Assembly (NCBI GenBank): GCA_035651895.1
Contig: DASREW010000032.1
Location: 18,584-82,583 of the forward strand
DNA length: 64,000 bases
Direction of reading: 5' to 3'
Source: Gaiellaceae bacterium
GTDB taxonomy: Bacteria; Actinomycetota; Thermoleophilia; Gaiellales; Gaiellaceae
Below the pieces are notes generated by a model. It ran no database searches, was not told where the DNA came from, and saw only the letters and a list, made by a program, of their open reading frames with translations. Both the position numbers and the translations under genes were made by a program. Below are positions 473-35,537 of this stretch, in pieces (the first letter of the stretch is position 1; each line of letters opens with the position of its first letter).

Positions 473-1458
473 TAGCCCTTGACCGCGCCGCCGGTGAGGC
501 CGGAGACGATCCAGCGCTGCAGGAACATGAAGAGGATCGTCACGGGCAGCGCCGCGAGCAGCGCACCGGCCGCGAACGGGCCCCAGACCTTGTCGTACTG
601 GTTGGAGATGAGCCCTTGCATACCGACCGGCAGCGTGAAGTGCCCGGTCGTCTGCAGGATGGCCGATGCGATCACGAACTCGTTCAGCGTGAAGACGAAT
701 GAGATCAGCGCGACGACGCACAGCACCGGCGCCGCAAGGGGCAGGACGACGCCCCAGAAGATCTGCGCCGCCGTGGCCCCGTCGACTCGCGCCGACTCGT
801 CCAGCTCCGAGGGAATCGTGTCGAAGAAGCCCTTCATCAGCCACGCCTGCACGCCCATCGAGCCGCCCAGGTAGACGACGATCACCGCGGCCAGCTGGTT
901 GAGGCCGATCTCCGGGAAGATGTTGCCGACGTTGTAGATGATCAGGTAGATCGCTGCGACCGCGACGAACTGCGGGAACATCTGGATCAGCAGCAGCGTC
1001 ATCATCCCGAGCCGGCGGCCCTTGAAGCGGAACCGGCTGAACGCGTACGCGGCGAGCGCGCCGAGCATCGTCGTGAAGATCGCCGTCAGGCCGGCGACGA
1101 GCATCGAGTTGACGAACCAGTGGAGGTACGGGACGTCGAGCTTGCCGCCGCTCGTTCCGACCACCTTGTTGTGGAAGAGCGCCCCGAAGTTGTGCAACGT
1201 CGTGTGGGTCGGGATCACCTGTGCGTCCTGGATCGTGTTGTCCGCGTTGAACGCCGACGACACGATGTAGACCACCGGGAACAGCGCGATCACCGCCGCG
1301 GCGATCGCGACCACGTGCCGCCACCAGGTGTCCTTGAGCTTCAGGCGCTTGCGCGGCCTGCCCACGCGCGTGTCCGCGAGCGTCGCCGTCACACGCGGCG
1401 TCGTGATCACCGTGGGTGTGAGATCCGCCTCGCTCATATCCGCTCCGGCGCCGGCCAA
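472..1458 (-). CDS. malG: Maltose/maltodextrin ABC transporter permease, MalG-like
   Basis: 328 aa, multi-TM, with the EAA loop DESARVDGATAAQIFWGVVLPLAAP. It follows the MalF-like gene in the same operon. The start could instead be the internal ATG at 1437. Confidence 0.85.
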   Translation of the reverse strand: MAGAGADMSEADLTPTVITTPRVTATLADTRVGRPRKRLKLKDTWWRHVVAIAAAVIALFPVVYIVSSAFNADNTIQDAQVIPTHTTLHNFGALFHNKVVGTSGGKLDVPYLHWFVNSMLVAGLTAIFTTMLGALAAYAFSRFRFKGRRLGMMTLLLIQMFPQFVAVAAIYLIIYNVGNIFPEIGLNQLAAVIVVYLGGSMGVQAWLMKGFFDTIPSELDESARVDGATAAQIFWGVVLPLAAPVLCVVALISFVFTLNEFVIASAILQTTGHFTLPVGMQGLISNQYDKVWGPFAAGALLAALPVTILFMFLQRWIVSGLTGGAVKG

Positions 1459-1501
1459 GCCGGCGCCTCCGCTCCTTGTGAGCCTCCGTCGAGCCTACGG
1501 T

Positions 1502-3136
<1,635 letters not shown>

Positions 3137-21640: not shown

Positions 21641-22357
21641 ATGAGACCCAACGCGCTCGTCCTCGTCGCACTCGCGGCCGCCGCCGCCGTCGTGGCTGCG
21701 CTCTTCGCCTTCGGCCGCCCCGCCGCCGCACACGGCGACACCGCCGCACACGGCGACACCGCCGCACCCGACTCCGTCACGACGCTCGGCGAAGGCGTCG
21801 TGACGCTCGTTCCCGACCAGGCGACGATCGACGCGGGCGTGCACACGCAGGCGACGACGGCCGCCGCGGCGCTGGCGCAGAACGCGACGGAGATGAACGC
21901 GGTCGTGCAGGCGCTGAAGGCTGCCGGCGGCCGCAACCTCCAGACCGAGGAGGTGTCGCTCTCGCCGCAGACCGATGCGAGCGGGAGCGTGACGGGCTAC
22001 ACGGCCGACGACTCGGTGTCCGCTCTCGCGGCGATCGCGGACGCGGGGAAGCTGATCGACGCGGCGGTTGCAGCGGGCGCCAACACCATCGACGGGCCGA
22101 CGCTCTCGATCTCGGACTACGCCGCGCGGTACCGGGACGCGCTCGCGAAGGCGGTCGACGACGCGCGCGCCAAGGCCGCTGCGCTCGCGAAGGAAGGCAA
22201 CTTCGCGCTCGGCGCGATCTCCTCCGTCTCGGAGCAGAGCACGTCGACCGCACCGGAGCCGCTCTTCAGGGCAGCGTCGACGCCGGCGGCAACTCCTGTC
22301 GAGCCGGGCTCACAGGACGTCACCGCCGACGTCTCGGTCACGTTTCGCATCACCTGA
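21641..22357 (+). CDS. SIMPL (DUF541) family secreted protein
   Basis: 238 aa with a signal peptide and SIMPL-like blocks: VTLVPDQATIDAGV, NATEMNAVVQALKAAG, YRDALAKAVDDARAKAAALA. Confidence 0.8.
   Translation: MRPNALVLVALAAAAAVVAALFAFGRPAAAHGDTAAHGDTAAPDSVTTLGEGVVTLVPDQATIDAGVHTQATTAAAALAQNATEMNAVVQALKAAGGRNLQTEEVSLSPQTDASGSVTGYTADDSVSALAAIADAGKLIDAAVAAGANTIDGPTLSISDYAARYRDALAKAVDDARAKAAALAKEGNFALGAISSVSEQSTSTAPEPLFRAASTPAATPVEPGSQDVTADVSVTFRIT
21728..21763 (+). repeat. Perfect 18-bp tandem duplication (GCACACGGCGACACCGCC x2, plus a partial third unit) inside the SIMPL gene
   Basis: Read directly. It encodes AHGDTA-AHGDTA just after the signal peptide. Confidence 0.9.
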
Positions 22358-23892: not shown

Positions 23893-24816
23893 TTAGCGGT
23901 CCTGCCGGTCGGGCGGCAAGAGCGTGATCCCCAGCAAACGGGCAGCTGTGTGCTCGACCTGGAGGGTGGTGTGGTCGAGCCCGAACCGCTCGTGGAGGAG
24001 CGTCTCGAGCTCTCGCCGGATGCGGTGGCAGTCCTCGCCGCGCTCGACGAGCACGTGGGCGGCGAGCGCCGGGAAGCCGGAGCTGATCTGCCACACGTGC
24101 AGGTCGTGGACGTCGGTGACGCCCGCGTGGCCTCGCAGCGCGGCGCCGACCTCGCTCGGGTCGATCTCTTCCGGCGCCGCCTCGAGCAGGATCTTCCCGG
24201 AGGCGACGAGGAGCGGCCAGGCGGCGAGCAGCATCGAGCCGGCGACCGCCAGCGACGCGATCGGGTCGGCGCGCTCGAACCCGGTCGCCCAGATCACCGC
24301 CCCGGCGACGACCGTCGCGGCAAACGCGTACAGGTCGGTCAGGAGGTGCCGGAAGCTGCCCTCGACGTTCAGGCTCTCCCGGTTCGCGCGGGCGACCTGC
24401 AGCAGCGCCAGCACGTTCACGACCGCGCCGGCGGCGGCGGTGCCGACGACGAGCGGCGCGTGGACGTGCGGCGGGCTCACGAGCCGGAAGCAGGCCTCGA
24501 TCACGATCAGTACGCCGAGCACGAGCAGGGTCGCGCCGTTCGCCTGCGCCGACAGGATCTCGGCCCGGCGGAACCCGAAGGTCATGCCGCCCTCGGGCGG
24601 CCGGCGTGCCAGCCGCGCCGCCCACACCGTGAGCCCGAGCGCGGCCGCGTCGACGAGCATGTGGGCAGCATCGGAGAGCAGCGCGAGCGAGTGCGCGACG
24701 ACGCCGAGCACGACCTCGGCGACGAGGAACGCGACGATCAGGCCGAGCGCGGCGACGAGCGGCCGGATCGGCGTCTCGGCGGTCGCGCCGTGGTCGTGCC
24801 CGTGGTCGTGGGCCAT
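23893..24816 (-). CDS. Cation diffusion facilitator family metal exporter (CzcD/ZitB-like)
   Basis: 307 aa from ATG 24816. His-rich N-terminus MAHDHGHDHG and TM2 motif HSLALLSDAAHMLVDAAAL. Confidence 0.88.
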   Translation of the reverse strand: MAHDHGHDHGATAETPIRPLVAALGLIVAFLVAEVVLGVVAHSLALLSDAAHMLVDAAALGLTVWAARLARRPPEGGMTFGFRRAEILSAQANGATLLVLGVLIVIEACFRLVSPPHVHAPLVVGTAAAGAVVNVLALLQVARANRESLNVEGSFRHLLTDLYAFAATVVAGAVIWATGFERADPIASLAVAGSMLLAAWPLLVASGKILLEAAPEEIDPSEVGAALRGHAGVTDVHDLHVWQISSGFPALAAHVLVERGEDCHRIRRELETLLHERFGLDHTTLQVEHTAARLLGITLLPPDRQDR

Positions 24817-24835
24817 AGGCCCTAGTGTTCCGCAC

Positions 24836-25309
24836 ATGGACGGCGTCGTGTTCGTCGAGATCCCGGCCGGATCGCGCAACAAGTACGAGTGGGACGAGGA
24901 GCTCGGCGGCATCGCGCTCGACCGGCGGCTCTTCACGTCGATGAGCTACCCGGCCGACTACGGCTTCATCGAAGGCACGCTCGCCGAGGACGGCGACCCG
25001 CTGGACGCGCTCGTGCTCGTCGGCGACCCGACGTTCCCCGGCTGCCGGATCCGTGTCCGCGCCGTCGGCGTGTTCCACATGGCCGACGAGAAGGGCCCCG
25101 ACGAGAAGGTGCTCTGCGTGCCGCTCAAGGATCCGTCCTGGAGCGAGATCTCCGACATCCACGACGTCCCCGCGCAGCTCCGGAACGAGATCGAGCACTT
25201 CTTCCAGGTCTACAAGGACCTCGAGGACAAGAAGACCGAGACGTGGGGATTCGGCAACAGATCGGAGGCACAGGCCGTGATCGAGGCGGCGCGCAGCCGC
25301 GCCTCCTGA
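24836..25309 (+). CDS. ppa: Inorganic pyrophosphatase (family I)
   Basis: 157 aa from ATG 24836: VEIPAGSRNKYEWD...YGFIEGTLAEDGDPLDALVL. Confidence 0.92.
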   Translation: MDGVVFVEIPAGSRNKYEWDEELGGIALDRRLFTSMSYPADYGFIEGTLAEDGDPLDALVLVGDPTFPGCRIRVRAVGVFHMADEKGPDEKVLCVPLKDPSWSEISDIHDVPAQLRNEIEHFFQVYKDLEDKKTETWGFGNRSEAQAVIEAARSRAS

Positions 25310-25428
25310 TAGTCTCGACGTCAGTCATGTCCGGGATCACCAACGCAGACGTCACACCGCGCCGCTTCTAGCGGCACTGGTGCGTCTTCGTTCGGTCTCG
25401 TTTTTCTCTCGATCCCAAGGAGCATGGC

Positions 25429-26247
25429 GTGTCTTCAGCAGTTGCAGCAGTCGACGTACGTGACCTGAACAAGGTCTTCAGCAGGCGCAAGGGCCTCTTC
25501 GGCCGGCGCAGCCGTGCCGCCTTGAACGGGGTCGGTTTGCGCATCGAGCGCGGCGAGTGCGTGGCCATCCTCGGCCAGAACGGCTCGGGGAAGTCGACGC
25601 TCGTCCGCCTGCTCTCGACGCTGCTCCTGCCGGACGGCGGCACCGCGAAGGTGTTCGGCTACGACGTGTTCAAGGAGCCGCGCGCGGTGCGGCGGCTCGT
25701 CAACCGCGTGTCGGTCGAAGCGAGCTTCTTCAAGAAGATGAGCGCGGCGGAGAACCTCTCGTACGCCGCGCGGTTCTACGGCATGGGGCCCGGCGAGACG
25801 CGGCGGGAGATCCCGCGCATCCTCGAGCGCGTCGGCTTCCCGGCCGCGCGGCGCAACGAGGCGATGGAGAACCTGTCCCGCGGCATGCAGCAGAAGGTCG
25901 CGCTCGCGCGTGCCCTGCTCACCTCGCCGGTCCTGCTGCTCCTCGACGAGCCGACGACGGGTCTCGATCCGCGGTCGAAGCAAGAGGTGCAGTCGTTCAT
26001 CCGCGAGATCCGCCAGCGGCACGACGCGACGATCCTGCTCTGCACGCACGACATGAAGGAGGCGGAAGAGCTTGCCGATCGCGTCGGGCTGCTCGACAAG
26101 GGAGTGCTGCTCTTCCTCGAGCCGGTGCCGCAGGTGCTCGCGCGCTACGGCGTCGCGACGCTTGAGGAGGCGTTCTTCGCCGCGACCGGGCGGACGTTCG
26201 AGGACGAGAAGACGGAAGAGGACGAGGACCGGGAGGTGTTCGCATGA
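25429..26247 (+). CDS. ABC transporter ATP-binding protein (ABC-2/DrrA-like exporter ATPase)
   Basis: Walker A GQNGSGKST, signature LSRGMQQKVALA, Walker B LLLLDEPTTGLD. AAGGAG lies 6 nt upstream of GTG 25429. Confidence 0.9.
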   Translation: MSSAVAAVDVRDLNKVFSRRKGLFGRRSRAALNGVGLRIERGECVAILGQNGSGKSTLVRLLSTLLLPDGGTAKVFGYDVFKEPRAVRRLVNRVSVEASFFKKMSAAENLSYAARFYGMGPGETRREIPRILERVGFPAARRNEAMENLSRGMQQKVALARALLTSPVLLLLDEPTTGLDPRSKQEVQSFIREIRQRHDATILLCTHDMKEAEELADRVGLLDKGVLLFLEPVPQVLARYGVATLEEAFFAATGRTFEDEKTEEDEDREVFA

Positions 26248-26316
26248 GCGTAGGCTCGACGGAGCTCATCAATAGCGGAGCCGCCGGCTTGGCCGGCGGT
26301 GGAGCGGAGTCAGTGA
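26248..26316 (+). repeat. REP-like GTAG-hairpin element, copy A (69 nt)
   Basis: GCGTAGGCTCGACGGAGCT...AGCGGAG-CCGCCGGC-TTG-GCCGGCGG-TGGAGCGGAGTCAGTGA. Tandem with copy B, differing at 3 positions. Confidence 0.85.
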
Positions 26317-26384
26317 GCGTAGGCTCGACGGAGCTCATCGATAGCGGAGCCGCCGGCTTGGACGGCGGTGGAGCGGAGTCATGA
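26317..26384 (+). repeat. REP-like GTAG-hairpin element, copy B (68 nt), ending on the permease start codon
   Basis: Same unit as copy A. Its 3' GGAGCGGAG tail sits just before ATG 26381. Confidence 0.85.
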
Positions 26385-27223
26385 CGGTCGATGTGACGCA
26401 GGCGTATACGCGGCGCCGTGTCGTGCGTGACGAGCTCGTCGGGCTCTACGGCGTCGTCGAGCGCAACCTGTATCTGACGAAGCGCTACCTGCTCTGGGAC
26501 CTCGCGTTCCTGCTCTGGACGGTCGCGAACACGCTCACGATCGTGTTCATCGCGCGCGGCGTGGGCATCTCGCCGACCGAGCGGAACGCGCTGGAGACGA
26601 AGCTGCTCGTCGGCGGCGTCATCTGGGCGTTCCTCGGGATCATCTTCGAGATCGTCACCGAGACGGTCGCCTGGGAGCGCTGGGAAGGAACGATCGAGTA
26701 CACCTTCATGGCGCCGGTGTCGCGCCCGGTCCACCTGATCGGCATGGGCGTGTATTCGGTGCTCTACGGCCTCGTGCGCGCAGGGCTCGTGTTCCTCGCG
26801 GTCGTCGCGTTCATCGGCATCCACGTGCCGCACGCGAACTACGGCGCAGCGGTGGCGCTGCTCGCGATCGCGTCGATCTCGTTCATCGGCGTCGGGATGA
26901 TGACGGCCGTGCTGCCGCTCATCTCGCCGGAGAAGGGCACGCAGCTCGGCTTCGTCGCGCAGGGGCTGATGCTCGTCGTCTCGGGCGTCTACTACCCGGT
27001 CAGCGTGCTGCCCGGCTGGATGCAGTGGGTGGCGAAGATCTCGCCGGCGACCTACGCGCTGCGCGGCAACCGCGCCTCGATCCTGTCGGGTGCCGGCGTC
27101 GCGTGGGCGGACGTCTGGCCGCTGCTCGTGATCGGCTCGATCTCGATTCCGCTCGGGCTCTTCGTCTTCAAGGCCGGAGAGCGGTACGCGAAGCAGCGCG
27201 GGAAGCTGAAGCGGTCCGGCTAG
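26381..27223 (+). CDS. ABC-2 type transporter permease
   Basis: 280 aa, six predicted TM helices, partner of the upstream ATPase. Confidence 0.85.
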   Translation: MTVDVTQAYTRRRVVRDELVGLYGVVERNLYLTKRYLLWDLAFLLWTVANTLTIVFIARGVGISPTERNALETKLLVGGVIWAFLGIIFEIVTETVAWERWEGTIEYTFMAPVSRPVHLIGMGVYSVLYGLVRAGLVFLAVVAFIGIHVPHANYGAAVALLAIASISFIGVGMMTAVLPLISPEKGTQLGFVAQGLMLVVSGVYYPVSVLPGWMQWVAKISPATYALRGNRASILSGAGVAWADVWPLLVIGSISIPLGLFVFKAGERYAKQRGKLKRSG

Positions 27224-27241
27224 ATCGGTTAGGGTCGGCGC

Positions 27242-28606
27242 ATGGGAATGATCGAGAGCAAGGACCGGGCGACCAGCGATCCCGAGGCGCGCAAGCGCGC
27301 CCTCAAGCAGATGGAGAAGGACGCGATCGAGTACGTCCTCTTCTGGTTCACGGACATCGAAGGGCACCTGAAGAGCTTCGCGATCACTCCGTCGGAGATC
27401 GAGGGCGCGCTCGACGACGGCATGGGCTTCGACGGCTCGTCGATCACGGGCTTCAACGCGATCGAAGAGTCCGACATGGTTGCGATCCCCGACCCGTCGA
27501 CCTACCGGCTGATGCCGACGCGCGACGGCGAGGCGAAGGTCGGGCGCATGATCTGCGACGTCGTCACGCCGGACGGGCAGCCCTACGAGGGCGATCCGCG
27601 CTACGTCCTTCGCCGCGCCCTCGAGCGCATGCAGTCGCTCGGCTTCGACACCTTCAACGTCGGCCCCGAGCTCGAGTACTTCCTCTTCCGCGACAAGGGC
27701 GGCACCGAGACGCTCGACGAAGGCGGGTACTTCGCGATGACCGCGCTCGACGCGGCGACCGAGCTGCGCAACGAGACGATCCGCGCGCTCGAGTCGATGG
27801 GCATCGGCATCGAGTACCACCACCACGAGGTCGCGCCGTCGCAGCACGAGATCGACATGCGCTACGCCTCGGCGCTCGACATGGCCGACCAGACGGTGAC
27901 GTACCGCCTAGTCGTCAAGGAGGTCGCCGCGAAGCACGGCGTGTACGCGACGTTCATGCCCAAGCCGCTGTTCGGCGAGAACGGCTCCGGCATGCACACC
28001 CACATGTCGCTCTTCAAGGAAGGGCGCAACCAGTTCTTCGACGGCTCCGATCCGTACCACCTGTCACCGGTCGGCAAGCAGTTCATCGCCGGCCTGCTCA
28101 AGCACGCGCGCGAGCTGTCGGGCGTCTTTGCGCAGTGGGTGAACTCGTACAAGCGGCTCGTGCCCGGCTATGAGGCGCCCGTCTACGTCGCGTGGTCGCA
28201 GCGGAACCGCTCGGCGCTGATCCGCATCCCGCTCTACAAGCCCGGGTCCGAGCAGGCGACGCGCGCCGAGATCCGTTGTCCCGATCCGGCGTGCAACCCG
28301 TACCTCACGTTCGCCGCGCTGCTGCACGCAGGCCTCGAGGGGATCGAGAAGGGCTACGAGCTGCCGGCGCCGATGGAGACGAACCTATACCACCTCACCG
28401 CGGACGAGCGGGCCGAGCGCGGGATCGTCTCGCTGCCGCACACGCTCGGCGAGGCGATCGACGAGTTCGCCGCGAGCGAGCTGATGCGGCGCGCCTTCGG
28501 CGACCACATCTTCGACAGCTACGTGAAGCTCAAGCGCGCCGAGTGGGACGACTACCGCGTCCAGCTCACCCAGTGGGAGCTCGACCGGTACCTCGGCGTG
28601 CTCTGA
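27242..28606 (+). CDS. glnA: Glutamine synthetase type I
   Basis: 454 aa with the motifs FDGSSI, NGSGMHTHMSLF and NSYKRLVPGYEAP. Confidence 0.9.
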   Translation: MGMIESKDRATSDPEARKRALKQMEKDAIEYVLFWFTDIEGHLKSFAITPSEIEGALDDGMGFDGSSITGFNAIEESDMVAIPDPSTYRLMPTRDGEAKVGRMICDVVTPDGQPYEGDPRYVLRRALERMQSLGFDTFNVGPELEYFLFRDKGGTETLDEGGYFAMTALDAATELRNETIRALESMGIGIEYHHHEVAPSQHEIDMRYASALDMADQTVTYRLVVKEVAAKHGVYATFMPKPLFGENGSGMHTHMSLFKEGRNQFFDGSDPYHLSPVGKQFIAGLLKHARELSGVFAQWVNSYKRLVPGYEAPVYVAWSQRNRSALIRIPLYKPGSEQATRAEIRCPDPACNPYLTFAALLHAGLEGIEKGYELPAPMETNLYHLTADERAERGIVSLPHTLGEAIDEFAASELMRRAFGDHIFDSYVKLKRAEWDDYRVQLTQWELDRYLGVL

Positions 28607-28618
28607 GAAGACGCCGCG

Positions 28619-28675
28619 GCGTAGGCTCGACGGAGCCGCGCAGCAAATCCGTGCCGGCTCGGCCGGTGCGGATTT
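28619..28675 (+). repeat. REP-like GTAG-hairpin element, copy C; its second hairpin (28645-28675) probably serves as a bidirectional terminator
   Basis: GCGTAGGCTCGACGGAGCC core, then AAATCCGTGCCGGC-TCG-GCCGGTGCGGATTT (14-bp stem with G-U pairs). It lies between the convergent glnA and PRC-barrel genes. Confidence 0.8.
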
Positions 28676-28928
28676 AGAGGAACGTCCGGATCGACTCGCG
28701 CTCGACGCGGAGCCCGATCACCTTGGCGCCGTTGTCGATCTGCTCGATCGAGTCGGCGGGCACGAGCCGGCGCCGGCGGGCGAAGAACCCGGAGCGCACG
28801 GAGAGCGCATCGGGACTCTCGGGGGAGGTGCCGTACATCGGGCACTCGACCTTGCCGACCACGCGGCCCCGGGCGTCAGCGACGAGGAAGCCGGCGGTGC
28901 TGCGGAGATCGATTGCGAGTGCGCTCAT
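28674..28928 (-). CDS. PRC-barrel domain protein
   Basis: 84 aa: LVADARGRVVGKVECPMYG...RRRRLVPADSIEQID, a PRC-barrel-like pattern. Confidence 0.65.
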   Translation of the reverse strand: MSALAIDLRSTAGFLVADARGRVVGKVECPMYGTSPESPDALSVRSGFFARRRRLVPADSIEQIDNGAKVIGLRVERESIRTFL

Positions 28929-34247: not shown

Positions 34248-34620
34248 GGACGGCATCCGCCGCGTCTTCGAAGCGTTCCGCGGCGGCGATCCGCGGGCGC
34301 TCTTCGACGTCATCGCCGAGGACGCGGTGTGGACGGTCAACGGCACGGTGCCGGTCGCCCAGGTGTACGAAGGACGCGCGCGGATCTTCGATCTCTTCCG
34401 CGAGACGCGTCGTCTCACCGGCGGCACCTATCTGTCGACCCTGCGCTGGTTTCTCGCCGACGGCGAGCACGCCGTCGCCGTCTACCGCGCGCAAGGTGCA
34501 CGCGAGGGGCGCGAGCTCGACATCGACCAGGTGCTCCTGATCGACCACGACGACGGCGTCTGGAAGCGCATCGTCGCCATCCCCTCCGACCCGCCGGCGT
34601 TCGAGGCGTTTTGGGCATGA
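34228..34620 (+). CDS. SnoaL-like / NTF2-superfamily protein (start uncertain)
   Basis: IRRVFEAFRGGDPRALFDVIAEDAVWTVNG... is typical SnoaL-like sequence. I chose TTG 34228; the track ATG 34177 would overlap clpS by 71 nt. Confidence 0.7.
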   Translation: MRRSNAEDGIRRVFEAFRGGDPRALFDVIAEDAVWTVNGTVPVAQVYEGRARIFDLFRETRRLTGGTYLSTLRWFLADGEHAVAVYRAQGAREGRELDIDQVLLIDHDDGVWKRIVAIPSDPPAFEAFWA

Positions 34621-34621
34621 G

Positions 34622-34684
34622 GCGTAGGCTTGACGGAGCCTCACAAAGAGCGGAGGTGCCGGCTTTGCCGGTGCCGGAGCGGAG
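34622..34684 (+). repeat. REP-like GTAG-hairpin element, copy D
   Basis: GCGTAGGCTTGACGGAGCC...AGCGGAG-GTGCCGGC-TTT-GCCGGTGCC-GGAGCGGAG. It starts just after the SnoaL-like gene stop (ATGA) and ends 1 nt before TTG 34686. Confidence 0.8.
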
Positions 34685-34685
34685 A

Positions 34686-35537
34686 TTGAAGATCGGGCTG
34701 CAGCTCCCGGAGGTGGAGCGCGACGTGCGGCGGGACGAGCTCGCTGCGATCGCGCGCGCCGGCGAGGAGCAGGGCTTCGACTCGCTCTGGGTCGGCGACC
34801 ACCTGCTCTACCGGGGCGACGGCCGCTCCGAGCGCGGCCCGTGGGACTGCTTCACCACGCTCGCGTGGCTCGCGGGGATCACGCAACGTGTCGAGCTCGG
34901 CCCGCTTGTCGCCTGCACGGCGTTCCACGAGCCGGGGATCATGGCTCGCATGTTCGCGGCGCTCGACGAGCTGTCGGGTGGCCGCGCGGTCGCCGCCGTC
35001 GGCGCCGGCTGGAACGTCACCGAGTTCGAGGCGTTCGGCATCCCCTTCGACCACCACGTGTCGCGGTTCGAGGAGGCGTTCGACATCGTGCGGCGTCTGC
35101 TTGCGGGCGAGCGCGTCACCTTTCACGGCCGCTTCCACCACGTCGAGGACGCGGTGCTGCTGCCGCCGCCTGCGCGCCGGCCGAAGCTGATGATCGGCGC
35201 GAACAACCCGCGGATGCTGTCGATCACGCTGCCGCACGTCGATGCCTGGAACACGTGGTACTCCCGCTACGGGAACACCGTCGAGGGCTTTGCCGCCGAG
35301 AACGCGCGCGTCTCCGAGGCCGCCGAGCGCGCGGGGCGCGACCCGGCCGGCATCGAGCGCAGCGCCTGCGTCTGGGTGCAGGTGAGCGACGCGGGCGAGC
35401 GGCCGCGCGACGTGCCGCCGGTTCCGGCCGACCGTCTCCGCGACCATCTCGACGGCCTCGCCGAGGCCGGGGCGGACGAGACGATCCTCGTGCTCGACCC
35501 GATCACGGAGCACGCAGTGCGTAGTCTTAGCCTGTGA
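34686..35537 (+). CDS. Luciferase-like monooxygenase (LLM class, possibly F420-dependent) oxidoreductase
   Basis: (M)KIGLQLPE...GFDSLWVGDHLLY is a typical LLM N-terminus. TTG 34686 has GGAG 6 nt upstream. In-frame alternatives are GTG 34656 and ATG 34617. Confidence 0.8.
   Translation: MKIGLQLPEVERDVRRDELAAIARAGEEQGFDSLWVGDHLLYRGDGRSERGPWDCFTTLAWLAGITQRVELGPLVACTAFHEPGIMARMFAALDELSGGRAVAAVGAGWNVTEFEAFGIPFDHHVSRFEEAFDIVRRLLAGERVTFHGRFHHVEDAVLLPPPARRPKLMIGANNPRMLSITLPHVDAWNTWYSRYGNTVEGFAAENARVSEAAERAGRDPAGIERSACVWVQVSDAGERPRDVPPVPADRLRDHLDGLAEAGADETILVLDPITEHAVRSLSL

Follow-up and report, generated by a model that had tools for sequence, protein, structure and literature searches.

A MIRU-like tandem repeat at the junction of two ABC transporter genes in Gaiellaceae, with a probable role in relaying ribosomes between them

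We analyzed a 64,000-nt stretch (the window) of contig DASREW010000032.1 from a Gaiellaceae bacterium, in which an array of two tandem repeat units separates an ABC transporter ATPase gene from the ABC-2 type permease gene downstream. Comparison of filled and empty orthologous sites showed that the array is a copy-number-variable insertion at the ATPase-permease junction. Its two units probably belong to a family of small, non-autonomous repeats that is dispersed in Gaiellales and specific to them; the array sits in the former ATGA overlap of the two genes and probably relays ribosomes across itself. The family resembles the interspersed repetitive units of mycobacteria (MIRUs) and, as far as could be found, has not been described in Gaiellales before; a literature search, which did not cover all journals, found no published account of repeats in Gaiella or Thermoleophilia.

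In Tandem Repeats Finder (TRF), the array was by far the strongest tandem repeat of the whole window, with a period of 69, 2.0 copies, 97% matches and a score of 260 at positions 26245-26381. Its 137 nt consist of a first unit of 69 nt and a second of 68 nt (Table 1), and each unit half had two matches in the window, compared to 0.00 expected from 100 shuffles. An earlier note, made from the letters of the window, had described these units, an in-frame 46-codon open reading frame (ORF) bridging the two genes, and three differences between the units, all of which were recovered. Two differences are internal (A/G at 26271/26340 and C/A at 26293/26362) and the third is the junction base; the C/A change breaks one pair of hairpin 2 in unit 2. 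The ORF list holds three successive frames of 272, 46 and 280 aa, the latter two starting with ATG, and their coordinates make both ends of the 46-codon ORF 4-nt ATGA overlaps. Walking along the message, the ATPase stop is followed by an ATG at -4, 46 codons, a second ATG at -4 and then the 280 codons of the permease. The ATPase ORF ends in ...GTGTTCGC ATGA, and the permease opens in GTC ATGA CGGTC. CATGA was indeed present on both sides of the insert (26243-26247 and 26380-26384), and the units are joined by CAGTGA at 26311-26316. The latter had been taken to resemble a target duplication, but it is better read as the canonical CATGA inter-unit junction with one extra base. This extra G gives the window array its period of 69 and fuses two 23-codon relay ORFs into one of 46 codons, leaving the chain unbroken.

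Homologues of the permease were found in the thousands, the nearest named ones in Gaiellaceae, and those with 86-96% identity were plentiful in soil metagenomes, the named ones again being Gaiellaceae. The relatives' contigs shared a common synteny of a cation-efflux gene (minus strand), ppa, ATPase, permease and glnA. Five orthologous loci (L002, L003, L123, L124 and L125) showed an empty junction with a plain ATGA, ...GGGAGGTGTTCGC ATGA GTACCGTCGAC, and a sixth (L122) was empty with TAATGA, ...GCGTA ATGA CCGTCGAC. A single unit occupied the junction in L001, ...GCGTG ATGA GCGTAGG...GGAGTC ATGA CCGTCGAC, and two units occupied it in the window. The ATGA found on both sides of the insert was single in the empty sites, and NTGA also belongs to the family consensus at both ends. 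The L001 unit is identical to window unit 1 except for one base, and window unit 2 has two derived changes. The states with zero, one and two units, together with the L001 comparison, show that a unit was gained where stop and start had once overlapped and that it was recently duplicated in tandem. Both steps had been proposed in the earlier note, along with a check of orthologous junctions; relatives have the simple overlap there, and no conserved peptide gene was found.

The empty sites also clarified the position of a native Shine-Dalgarno (SD)-like motif, GGGAGGTG, which precedes the permease start in empty sites and the relay ORF in the window. In each unit, a start lies over the upstream stop, about 23 codons of open frame follow, and the unit closes with an SD-like GGAGCGG tail and a stop over the next start. 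Empty and filled orthologous sites show that a unit entered the ATGA overlap of the ATPase and permease genes and was later duplicated in tandem. We propose that a ribosome ending the ATPase would reinitiate at the relay ATG 26244, now served by GGGAGGTG as a putative native Shine-Dalgarno sequence. The 5' arm of hairpin 1 in unit 1 holds the ATPase stop codon plus 2 nt of the relay ATG; with its start held in this hairpin, the relay ORF would be accessible mainly to a ribosome coming from upstream. That ribosome would melt hairpin 1, read 46 codons across the hairpins of both units, terminate at TGA 26382-26384 and reinitiate on the permease ATG 26381, helped by the element's own GGAGCGGAG at 26370-26378. 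The insertion would in this way be translationally transparent, and the element may be tolerated because ribosomes are relayed across it. The GC-rich hairpins may additionally alter mRNA decay or processing and hence the ratio of the two subunits.

A profile made from three units (window units 1 and 2 and the L001 unit) was searched with nhmmer and gave a total of five units at four sites in the window, that is, three sites besides the focal array, which the earlier note had overlooked. Exact or near-exact search (<=3 mismatches) revealed no further window copies, and the profile was needed to detect them. One single unit lies on the minus strand between two ABC permease genes, with ATGA at both ends and a 23-codon relay ORF, MNRRLDGGSQGAEAPAWPAPERI, whose frame differs from that of the focal element. 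The window thus has a second transporter operon with a repeat at a subunit junction (1436-1504, minus strand). Another single unit follows a SnoaL-like gene, whose stop lies in ATGA 34617-34620, and its relay frame continues in frame into a luciferase-like monooxygenase gene. The start of this gene may be ATG 34617, which would add 23 aa encoded by the repeat, or TTG 34686, and the annotation of such genes is ambiguous. The third site, after the glnA stop, holds a variant that keeps hairpin 1 (CGCGGC/GCCGCG), has a 14-bp hairpin 2 (AAATCCGTGCCGGC/GCCGGTGCGGATTT) and is without the SD-like tail. Its hairpin 2 is flanked by AAA/TTT, and the unit may be a 3'-end or terminator-type variant of the repeat.

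The pattern GTAGGCTYGACGGAG-N10-26-CCGGCNNNGCCGG was searched in GTDB genomes, with each species represented by one, and at least 118 loci were found among the matches listed. The hosts among these matches were all Gaiellaceae, Gaiella, Thermoleophilia or unclassified Actinomycetota/Actinomycetes metagenome-assembled genomes (MAGs), and no mycobacterial records were among them. A metagenome scan with the hairpin of the focal subfamily returned six contigs: that of L001 itself, one with a three-unit array of period 68, one with a copy at a gatC-like/gatA-like junction, one with a copy directly upstream of rpsC, and a pair of nearly identical ones in which the copy lies upstream of a methyltransferase-like gene. 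Bridged gene pairs across the family included another ABC ATPase/ABC-2 permease pair, hydantoinase B/A, aldehyde dehydrogenase/aminotransferase, siroheme synthase domain/methylase, DUF1800/DUF1501, gatC/gatA, and rpsC with the gene upstream of it. These are functionally linked pairs, yet they come from unrelated pathways across sites, which argues against a pathway-specific regulator. The longest arrays were found in L079 (six units), L013 (four) and L043 (four); in L079 the period is 69 without start or stop codons at the junctions, resulting in a single long repeat-encoded ORF. After a three-unit array in L116 (5168-5380, minus strand), the downstream gene opens with ATGAGCGAC GTGTTGACGGGCGAGTCGC, which looks like a decayed fourth unit that is now a protein N-terminus. 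A four-unit array had no match in PLSDB plasmids by BLAST.

The dispersed copies bear directly on another alternative, a purely local event in which a native 69-nt spacer was doubled by strand slippage and no mobile family played a part. Two adjacent, near-identical units with CATGA microhomology at their ends would be expected from such an event, but diverged copies exist at three other window sites and at the other loci found by the pattern, and the orthologous junctions have no spacer at all. The dispersed copies and the empty sites refute local duplication as the full explanation, the chance of which we put at next to nil; only the step from one to two units may be local.

The placement of the arrays was examined with the coding strand and frame of the flanks called from the periodicity of GC content at third codon positions. 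Between co-directional genes, 86 arrays were sense and 3 antisense, and a further 9 lay between divergent and 7 between convergent genes. From the stop of the upstream gene, we walked stop by stop to the overlapping start. Unbroken chains of -4/-1 overlaps led into the downstream gene in 64 of the 86 co-directional arrays, showing that the chained starts and stops noted earlier at the focal site are a property of the whole repeat family. Separate relay ORFs were present in 45 of these chains, and the other 19 were single-hop, the unit forming the tail of the upstream protein or sharing the frame of the downstream gene. Of the 48 single units that have NTGA on either end, 41 had start-to-start distances of 65, 68 (29 cases), 71 or 74 nt, a frame-keeping excess over the 1/3 expectation with a binomial p of 1.3e-13, and the length of 68 was reached by five different combinations of arm, body and tail lengths.

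The tandem arrays showed the same regularity in two forms. At 11 of the 32 adjacent unit pairs, the period was 68 with an NTGA junction, giving each unit its own 23-codon ORF. Another 17 pairs lacked a junction stop or start and had a period divisible by 3, giving one continuous ORF; 15 of these were full-length at 63, 66, 69 or 72 nt, and in the remaining two, at 27 and 33 nt, a unit was truncated. The pattern did not hold for three or four of the 32 pairs. Translation of the conserved core used frame 0 in 52 units and frame 1 in 54, but in no unit the frame with TAG, and the second halves of units switch frame again. The two core frames yield unrelated peptides, MSVGSTEL... and MSRRLDGG.... 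Given this near-equal use of two core frames, what is conserved is length and frame and not the peptide. Judged from these patterns, selection most likely acts on frame continuity and the two hairpins, with the peptide as a by-product.

The same data speak to the possibility that a genuine small protein, such as an accessory transporter subunit, is encoded by the 46-codon ORF or by each unit of 23 codons. In favor of this are the open frame, a good SD sequence (GGGAGGTG) 5 nt before the ATG, and the coupling of the ORF to both neighbors. Nevertheless, the insert is missing from the six empty orthologous loci, whose permeases are 88-96% identical to that of the window, and the 46-aa product had no Pfam or NCBIfam match. 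In L001 the ATPase orthologue was called as a 272-aa gene and the relay ORF was not called. The unit is also found in unrelated operons, and one DNA unit is used about equally in two frames with unrelated products. We therefore consider a small-protein gene very improbable.

About 160 units were considered across the family, and 147 distinct ones were aligned. The alignment begins with a variable 5' arm, mostly (A/G)TGAGC(C), followed by the nearly invariant 14-nt GTAGGCTCGACGGA and a complementary 3' arm. A spacer with AAGGAGCGGAGG then leads to a 9-bp GC hairpin, GGYGCCGGC TTT GCCGGCRCC, and to the tail CGGAGCGGG, N and the next start codon, usually in ATGA. The conserved SD-like tail, GGAGCGG(G/A), lies 5-8 nt ahead of this start, and the units are 65-75 nt long. 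Both predicted hairpins were supported by covariation. Pairing was observed in 96.6% of cells, compared to 85.0% after column shuffles (0 of 500 reached the observed value) and 24-54% with a slid 3' partner. Hairpin 2 was paired in 98% of cells across the family. The arms of hairpin 1 covaried heavily: pair 7-28, for instance, occurs as CG (50 units), GC (45) and AU (30), and 17 distinct fully paired 4-bp arm combinations accounted for 124 of the 147 units. In single-unit folds, hairpin 2 formed in all and hairpin 1 in some.

Such conservation could also be expected of a cis-acting structured RNA (protein-binding, RNase-recognition or translational switch) that the host recruited at many junctions, with its spread being secondary. 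In many MAG species the loop GTAGGCTCGACGGA hardly varies, but its stem covaries among 17 arm types, like a binding site presented on a helix; the orientation is strictly sense; and in predicted folds the 3' arm alternatively pairs with the downstream TGAGC. This explanation is at odds with the presence/absence and copy-number polymorphism among close relatives and with the unrelated operons. The invariant loop is equally explained as the recognition site of a mobilizing enzyme, and the alternative pairing with the downstream start is without covariation support. Some minimum-energy folds suggest an RNA switch whose 3' arm would pair in turn with the TGAGC upstream and the one downstream; this was rejected, as the downstream flank did not covary with the arm. 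A cmscan of Rfam over 25000-27500 with E <= 10 gave only two chance-level matches, snoTBR5 (16 bits, gathering 44) and CC0196 (15 bits, gathering 35), and an Rfam family was rejected. We regard a host-recruited structured RNA as improbable, its chance being slight.

The repetitive extragenic palindromic (REP) sequence of the E. coli malE-malF spacer has a possible role in mRNA stability. By analogy, the array could be a classical REP or bacterial interspersed mosaic element (BIME), mobilized by a REP-associated tyrosine transposase (RAYT) and serving as a 3'-5' mRNA decay barrier or processing site that sets the ATPase:permease ratio, which the earlier note had suggested the units could affect. 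The position between two cistrons, the stable GC hairpin 2 in every fold and the GTAG invariant in the core are consistent with this, and the variant after glnA (28617-28674) resembles a 3'-end hairpin. Most REPs, moreover, are located downstream of ORFs, where the neighboring genes are unidirectional or convergent (PMC3733652). The REP/BIME sequences with RAYT transposases of E. coli, Pseudomonas and Stenotrophomonas share with the present family a high copy number, short GC-rich hairpins between unidirectional or convergent genes and a conserved GTAG (PMC3733652, PMC2817692), and they are transcribed with the operon. A REP is defined, however, as an imperfect 20-40-bp palindrome with GTAG (or CGTC) at one terminus, and GTAG REPs have been reported from Proteobacteria, Cyanobacteria, Chloroflexi and the PVC (Planctomycetes-Verrucomicrobia-Chlamydiae) group, not from Actinobacteria (PMC3733652). 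The Gaiellaceae unit is instead a 68-nt composite of two different hairpins with GTAG inside the 14-nt loop of hairpin 1, and not at a palindrome terminus. REPs often occur as inverted pairs, usually outside ORFs and without a relay ORF, whereas all 32 adjacent Gaiellaceae pairs were head-to-tail. No inverted pairs, as occur around RAYT genes, were present among the loci fetched by pattern. The absence of a GTAG-ended single palindrome and of inverted pairs means that two defining REP/BIME features fail. Neither the sense orientation, nor the overlapping start and stop codons, nor the frame-keeping lengths are explained by a decay barrier, and a promoter/terminator pattern scan of 25300-28800 showed no terminator-like site. 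An intrinsic terminator was likewise rejected, as there is no T run and hairpin 2 continues into TGGAGCGGAG. The term REP-like in the earlier note is therefore loosely right, but it does not fit the two-hairpin composite, its head-to-tail arrangement or the location of GTAG in a loop. A classical REP/BIME is unlikely as the explanation, with an appreciable residual chance, and a decay barrier is compatible with ribosome relay as an added effect.

Several points weigh against the proposal that the array is a mobile insertion across which ribosomes are relayed. Translation of the relay ORF and reinitiation after it are proposed here from sequence alone. The chains were imperfect in 22 of the 86 co-directional arrays, and the frame statistics count related copies, so that the events are not independent. 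Repeat copies share ancestry in the alignment as well, and the covariation is partly inherited subfamily structure. Fold z-scores of -0.5 to -2.7 give weak thermodynamic support, and with such modest values the case for structure rests on the covariation; in some minimum-energy folds, the 3' arm pairs with the TGAGC of the next unit instead. The GAGCC/GGCGA subfamily has mismatched hairpin-1 arms. As to mobility, the flanking NTGA is indistinguishable from an element-borne motif, and the fetched loci (0.94 Mb) yielded neither a transposase nor an autonomous element in a search that did not include a protein-level PF01797 scan of whole genomes.

The closest precedent is the MIRU and not the REP, a comparison that the earlier note had missed (PMC12548453, PMC3184786). 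MIRUs are described there as inserting at start codons with an ORF coupled at -4 nt (PMC12548453, citing Supply 1997; PMC3184786), and ribosome relay is the explanation given for their tolerance in PMC12548453, citing Supply 1997. PMC12548453 and PMC3184786 describe MIRUs as 40-100 bp in length, scattered between the cistrons of operons, oriented like the genes beside them and variable in tandem copy number between strains. The Gaiellaceae units, at 65-75 nt, are comparable in size, equally co-oriented (86 sense versus 3 antisense) and present in 0, 1 or 2 units at the focal junction and in arrays of 2-6 elsewhere. Further MIRU features in these papers are a small ORF per unit overlapping the stop and start of the neighbors at -4 nt, matched here by the 64 chains, tetranucleotide direct repeats at filled versus empty sites, and GC-rich internal inverted repeats, which the Gaiellaceae units share. 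There are also differences. The present hosts belong to Thermoleophilia/Gaiellales, another class of Actinomycetota, known from MAGs alone. The covarying stem that encloses the stop/start overlap around a 14-nt loop, the element-borne SD-like tail and the frame-keeping lengths despite unconserved peptides are not reported for MIRU in PMC12548453 and PMC3184786. The apparent density is much higher, with 5 units per 64 kb here, compared to about 40-50 per mycobacterial genome (PMC3184786). Judged by analogy, the element appears to work like a MIRU; it is filed with them by features and not as a member by descent.

Two other systems share some of these features. Rickettsia palindromic elements (RPEs), mentioned in PMC3733652, are small palindromic repeats tolerated in reading frames by frame-keeping, and the 19 one-hop units that are read as part of a flanking protein are their counterpart here. 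RPEs, however, are longer, lie within genes and form part of functional proteins, whereas the Gaiellaceae family sits at the stop/start junction, mostly with a separate mini-ORF. Minimal elements derived from IS200/IS605 insertion sequences (PMC6006769 and general knowledge), which move as single-stranded DNA by "peel and paste" and choose targets under the direction of a guide, have two subterminal hairpins, no inverted terminal repeats and strand-specific insertion beside a short specific target; the internal GCTCA of our unit, complementary to the flanking target-like TGAGC, is reminiscent of them. Unlike these elements, which make no duplication, the Gaiellaceae units have the same NTGA on both sides. 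No Y1 transposase gene or full-length element was found in the fetched loci, with the limit on protein-level scanning given above, and the arm-target complementarity fails in one subfamily. IS200/IS605 kinship is a lead only.

We also considered how units might choose their sites. In the 0.94 Mb of fetched loci, there were only four truncated or chance cores, without other orphan cores or a hairpin 1/hairpin 2 pair split by a gene, and no hairpin-2-only sites. Both-strand matches occurred only in the window (distant copies) and in L001, where one weak antisense profile match (908-991, minus strand) lies in the divergent cation-efflux/ppa spacer. A position-wise comparison of 5' and 3' flanks against shuffled pairs showed no target-site duplication beyond NTGA; first-base matching was 0.68 compared to 0.58 in shuffled pairs, a weak excess only. 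A miniature inverted-repeat transposable element of DDE-transposase origin, a kind with 15-30-bp terminal inverted repeats and a target-site duplication of fixed length, was rejected, since the ends, TGAGC GTAGG... and ...GGAGCGGGNA, are not inverted copies and there is no duplication beyond NTGA. There is a small chance that the family represents a new kind of mobile element that homes to NTGA overlaps by pairing of arm and target (GCTCA/TGAGC and variants), with an enzyme reading the GTAGGCTCGACGGA loop. In such guide-directed insertion of single-stranded DNA, both the relay ORF and a Shine-Dalgarno sequence would come with the element, keeping translation of the operon coupled, and arm mutations would reprogram the choice of target. 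At gatC-gatA, the copy combines a GATCA arm with TGATC on either flank, and upstream of rpsC, each end of the copy has TAATG; in both, the flanking repeat appears to track the local target, a hint that would fit guide-directed targeting. The mismatched GAGCC/GGCGA subfamily speaks against a strict arm-target rule, and the failure to find a transposase in the fetched loci also counts against this reading. In its members (L014, L022, L062, L086 and L095), the 5' ATGAGCC is combined with a GGCGA 3' arm and the arms do not match (3 of 5 pairs), as if a GTCGCC/GGCGAC-type 3' arm had been joined to the canonical ATGAGCC left end. This subfamily bears on the question of whether the 5' arm is part of the element or of the target.

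Table 1. Coordinates of the focal array, its flanking genes and the other family copies in the window
Feature	Positions	Strand	Basis and details
ABC transporter ATP-binding protein gene, drrA-like	25429..26247	+	ORF list; PF00005; TIGR01188; stop TGA 26245-26247
Native Shine-Dalgarno-like GGGAGGTG	26231..26238	+	5 nt upstream of ATG 26244; comparison with empty sites ...GGGAGGTGTTCGCATGA
Relay (bridge) ORF, 46 codons	26244..26384	+	ATG in ATPase stop; TGA 26382-26384 over permease ATG 26381
Repeat unit 1 (69 nt)	26245..26313	+	TRF; match to family hidden Markov model (HMM) 26244-26309, E 3e-15
Unit 1 hairpin 1	26245..26268	+	Arms TGAGC 26245-26249 / GCTCA 26264-26268; loop GTAGGCTCGACGGA 26250-26263; arm covariation, 147 units
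Unit 1 hairpin 2, CCGCCGGC TTG GCCGGCGG, 8-9 bp, GC-rich	26281..26299	+	Single-unit folds; family pairing
Unit 1 SD-like tail GGAGCGGAG	26301..26309	+	Family alignment; putative function
Repeat unit 2 (68 nt)	26314..26381	+	TRF; HMM match 26314-26378, E 4e-13; weaker fold
Unit 2 hairpin 1	26314..26337	+	
Unit 2 hairpin 2	26350..26368	+	C>A mismatch at 26362
Unit 2 SD-like tail	26370..26378	+	
ABC-2 type transporter permease gene	26381..27223	+	PF01061, 2.9e-18
Single unit between two BPD_transp_1 ABC permease genes	1436..1504	-	nhmmer E 5e-18; Pfam; walk
Variant unit after glnA stop, between convergent genes	28617..28674	+	nhmmer E 5e-9; fold -45.5 kcal/mol, z -2.4
Single unit between SnoaL-like and luciferase-like monooxygenase genes	34618..34686	+	nhmmer E 7e-20; Pfam; walk

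The ATPase product matched PF00005 at 1.5e-30 and TIGR01188 at 1.7e-65, the latter under that family's cutoff. In the window, L002 and L122, glnA directly follows the permease; in L123 (1193-1804), L124 (2096-3162) and the P0005 contig, an opposite-strand alpha/beta-hydrolase gene and small ORFs lie between permease and glnA. Upstream of the ATPase gene, a 461-aa ORF (23924-25309, plus strand) has its pyrophosphatase domain confined to the last 150 residues, and the ppa products of relatives have 159-178 aa. The long ORF is a high-GC artefact, with the real ppa being roughly its last third. A perfect 18-nt tandem repeat at 21723-21767 (CCGCCGCACACGGCGACA x2.5, TRF score 90) has a period divisible by 3 and is thus probably an in-frame coding repeat.

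MIRUs have served for decades as typing markers, and how they move and why they carry overlapping mini-ORFs are still unsettled. The Gaiellaceae family, which belongs to an uncultured soil lineage and has more than 100 loci in many species, provides an independent and far larger case. Its natural alleles with 0, 1 and 2 copies, its arm and frame variants and its differing periods provide comparative evidence that frame continuity and hairpins are kept and the peptide is not, and its size and variation make both the relay hypothesis and the question of mobility far more testable than in mycobacteria. For annotation, such 23- and 46-codon ORFs can be treated as relay ORFs and not as genes, and coupled genes may stay coupled across 70-400 nt of repeat. 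The unit is also a compact natural bicistronic relay cassette for testing in Actinobacteria. The comparative evidence from the family favors the view that certain selfish repeats survive within operons through passing ribosomes on from one end to the other.

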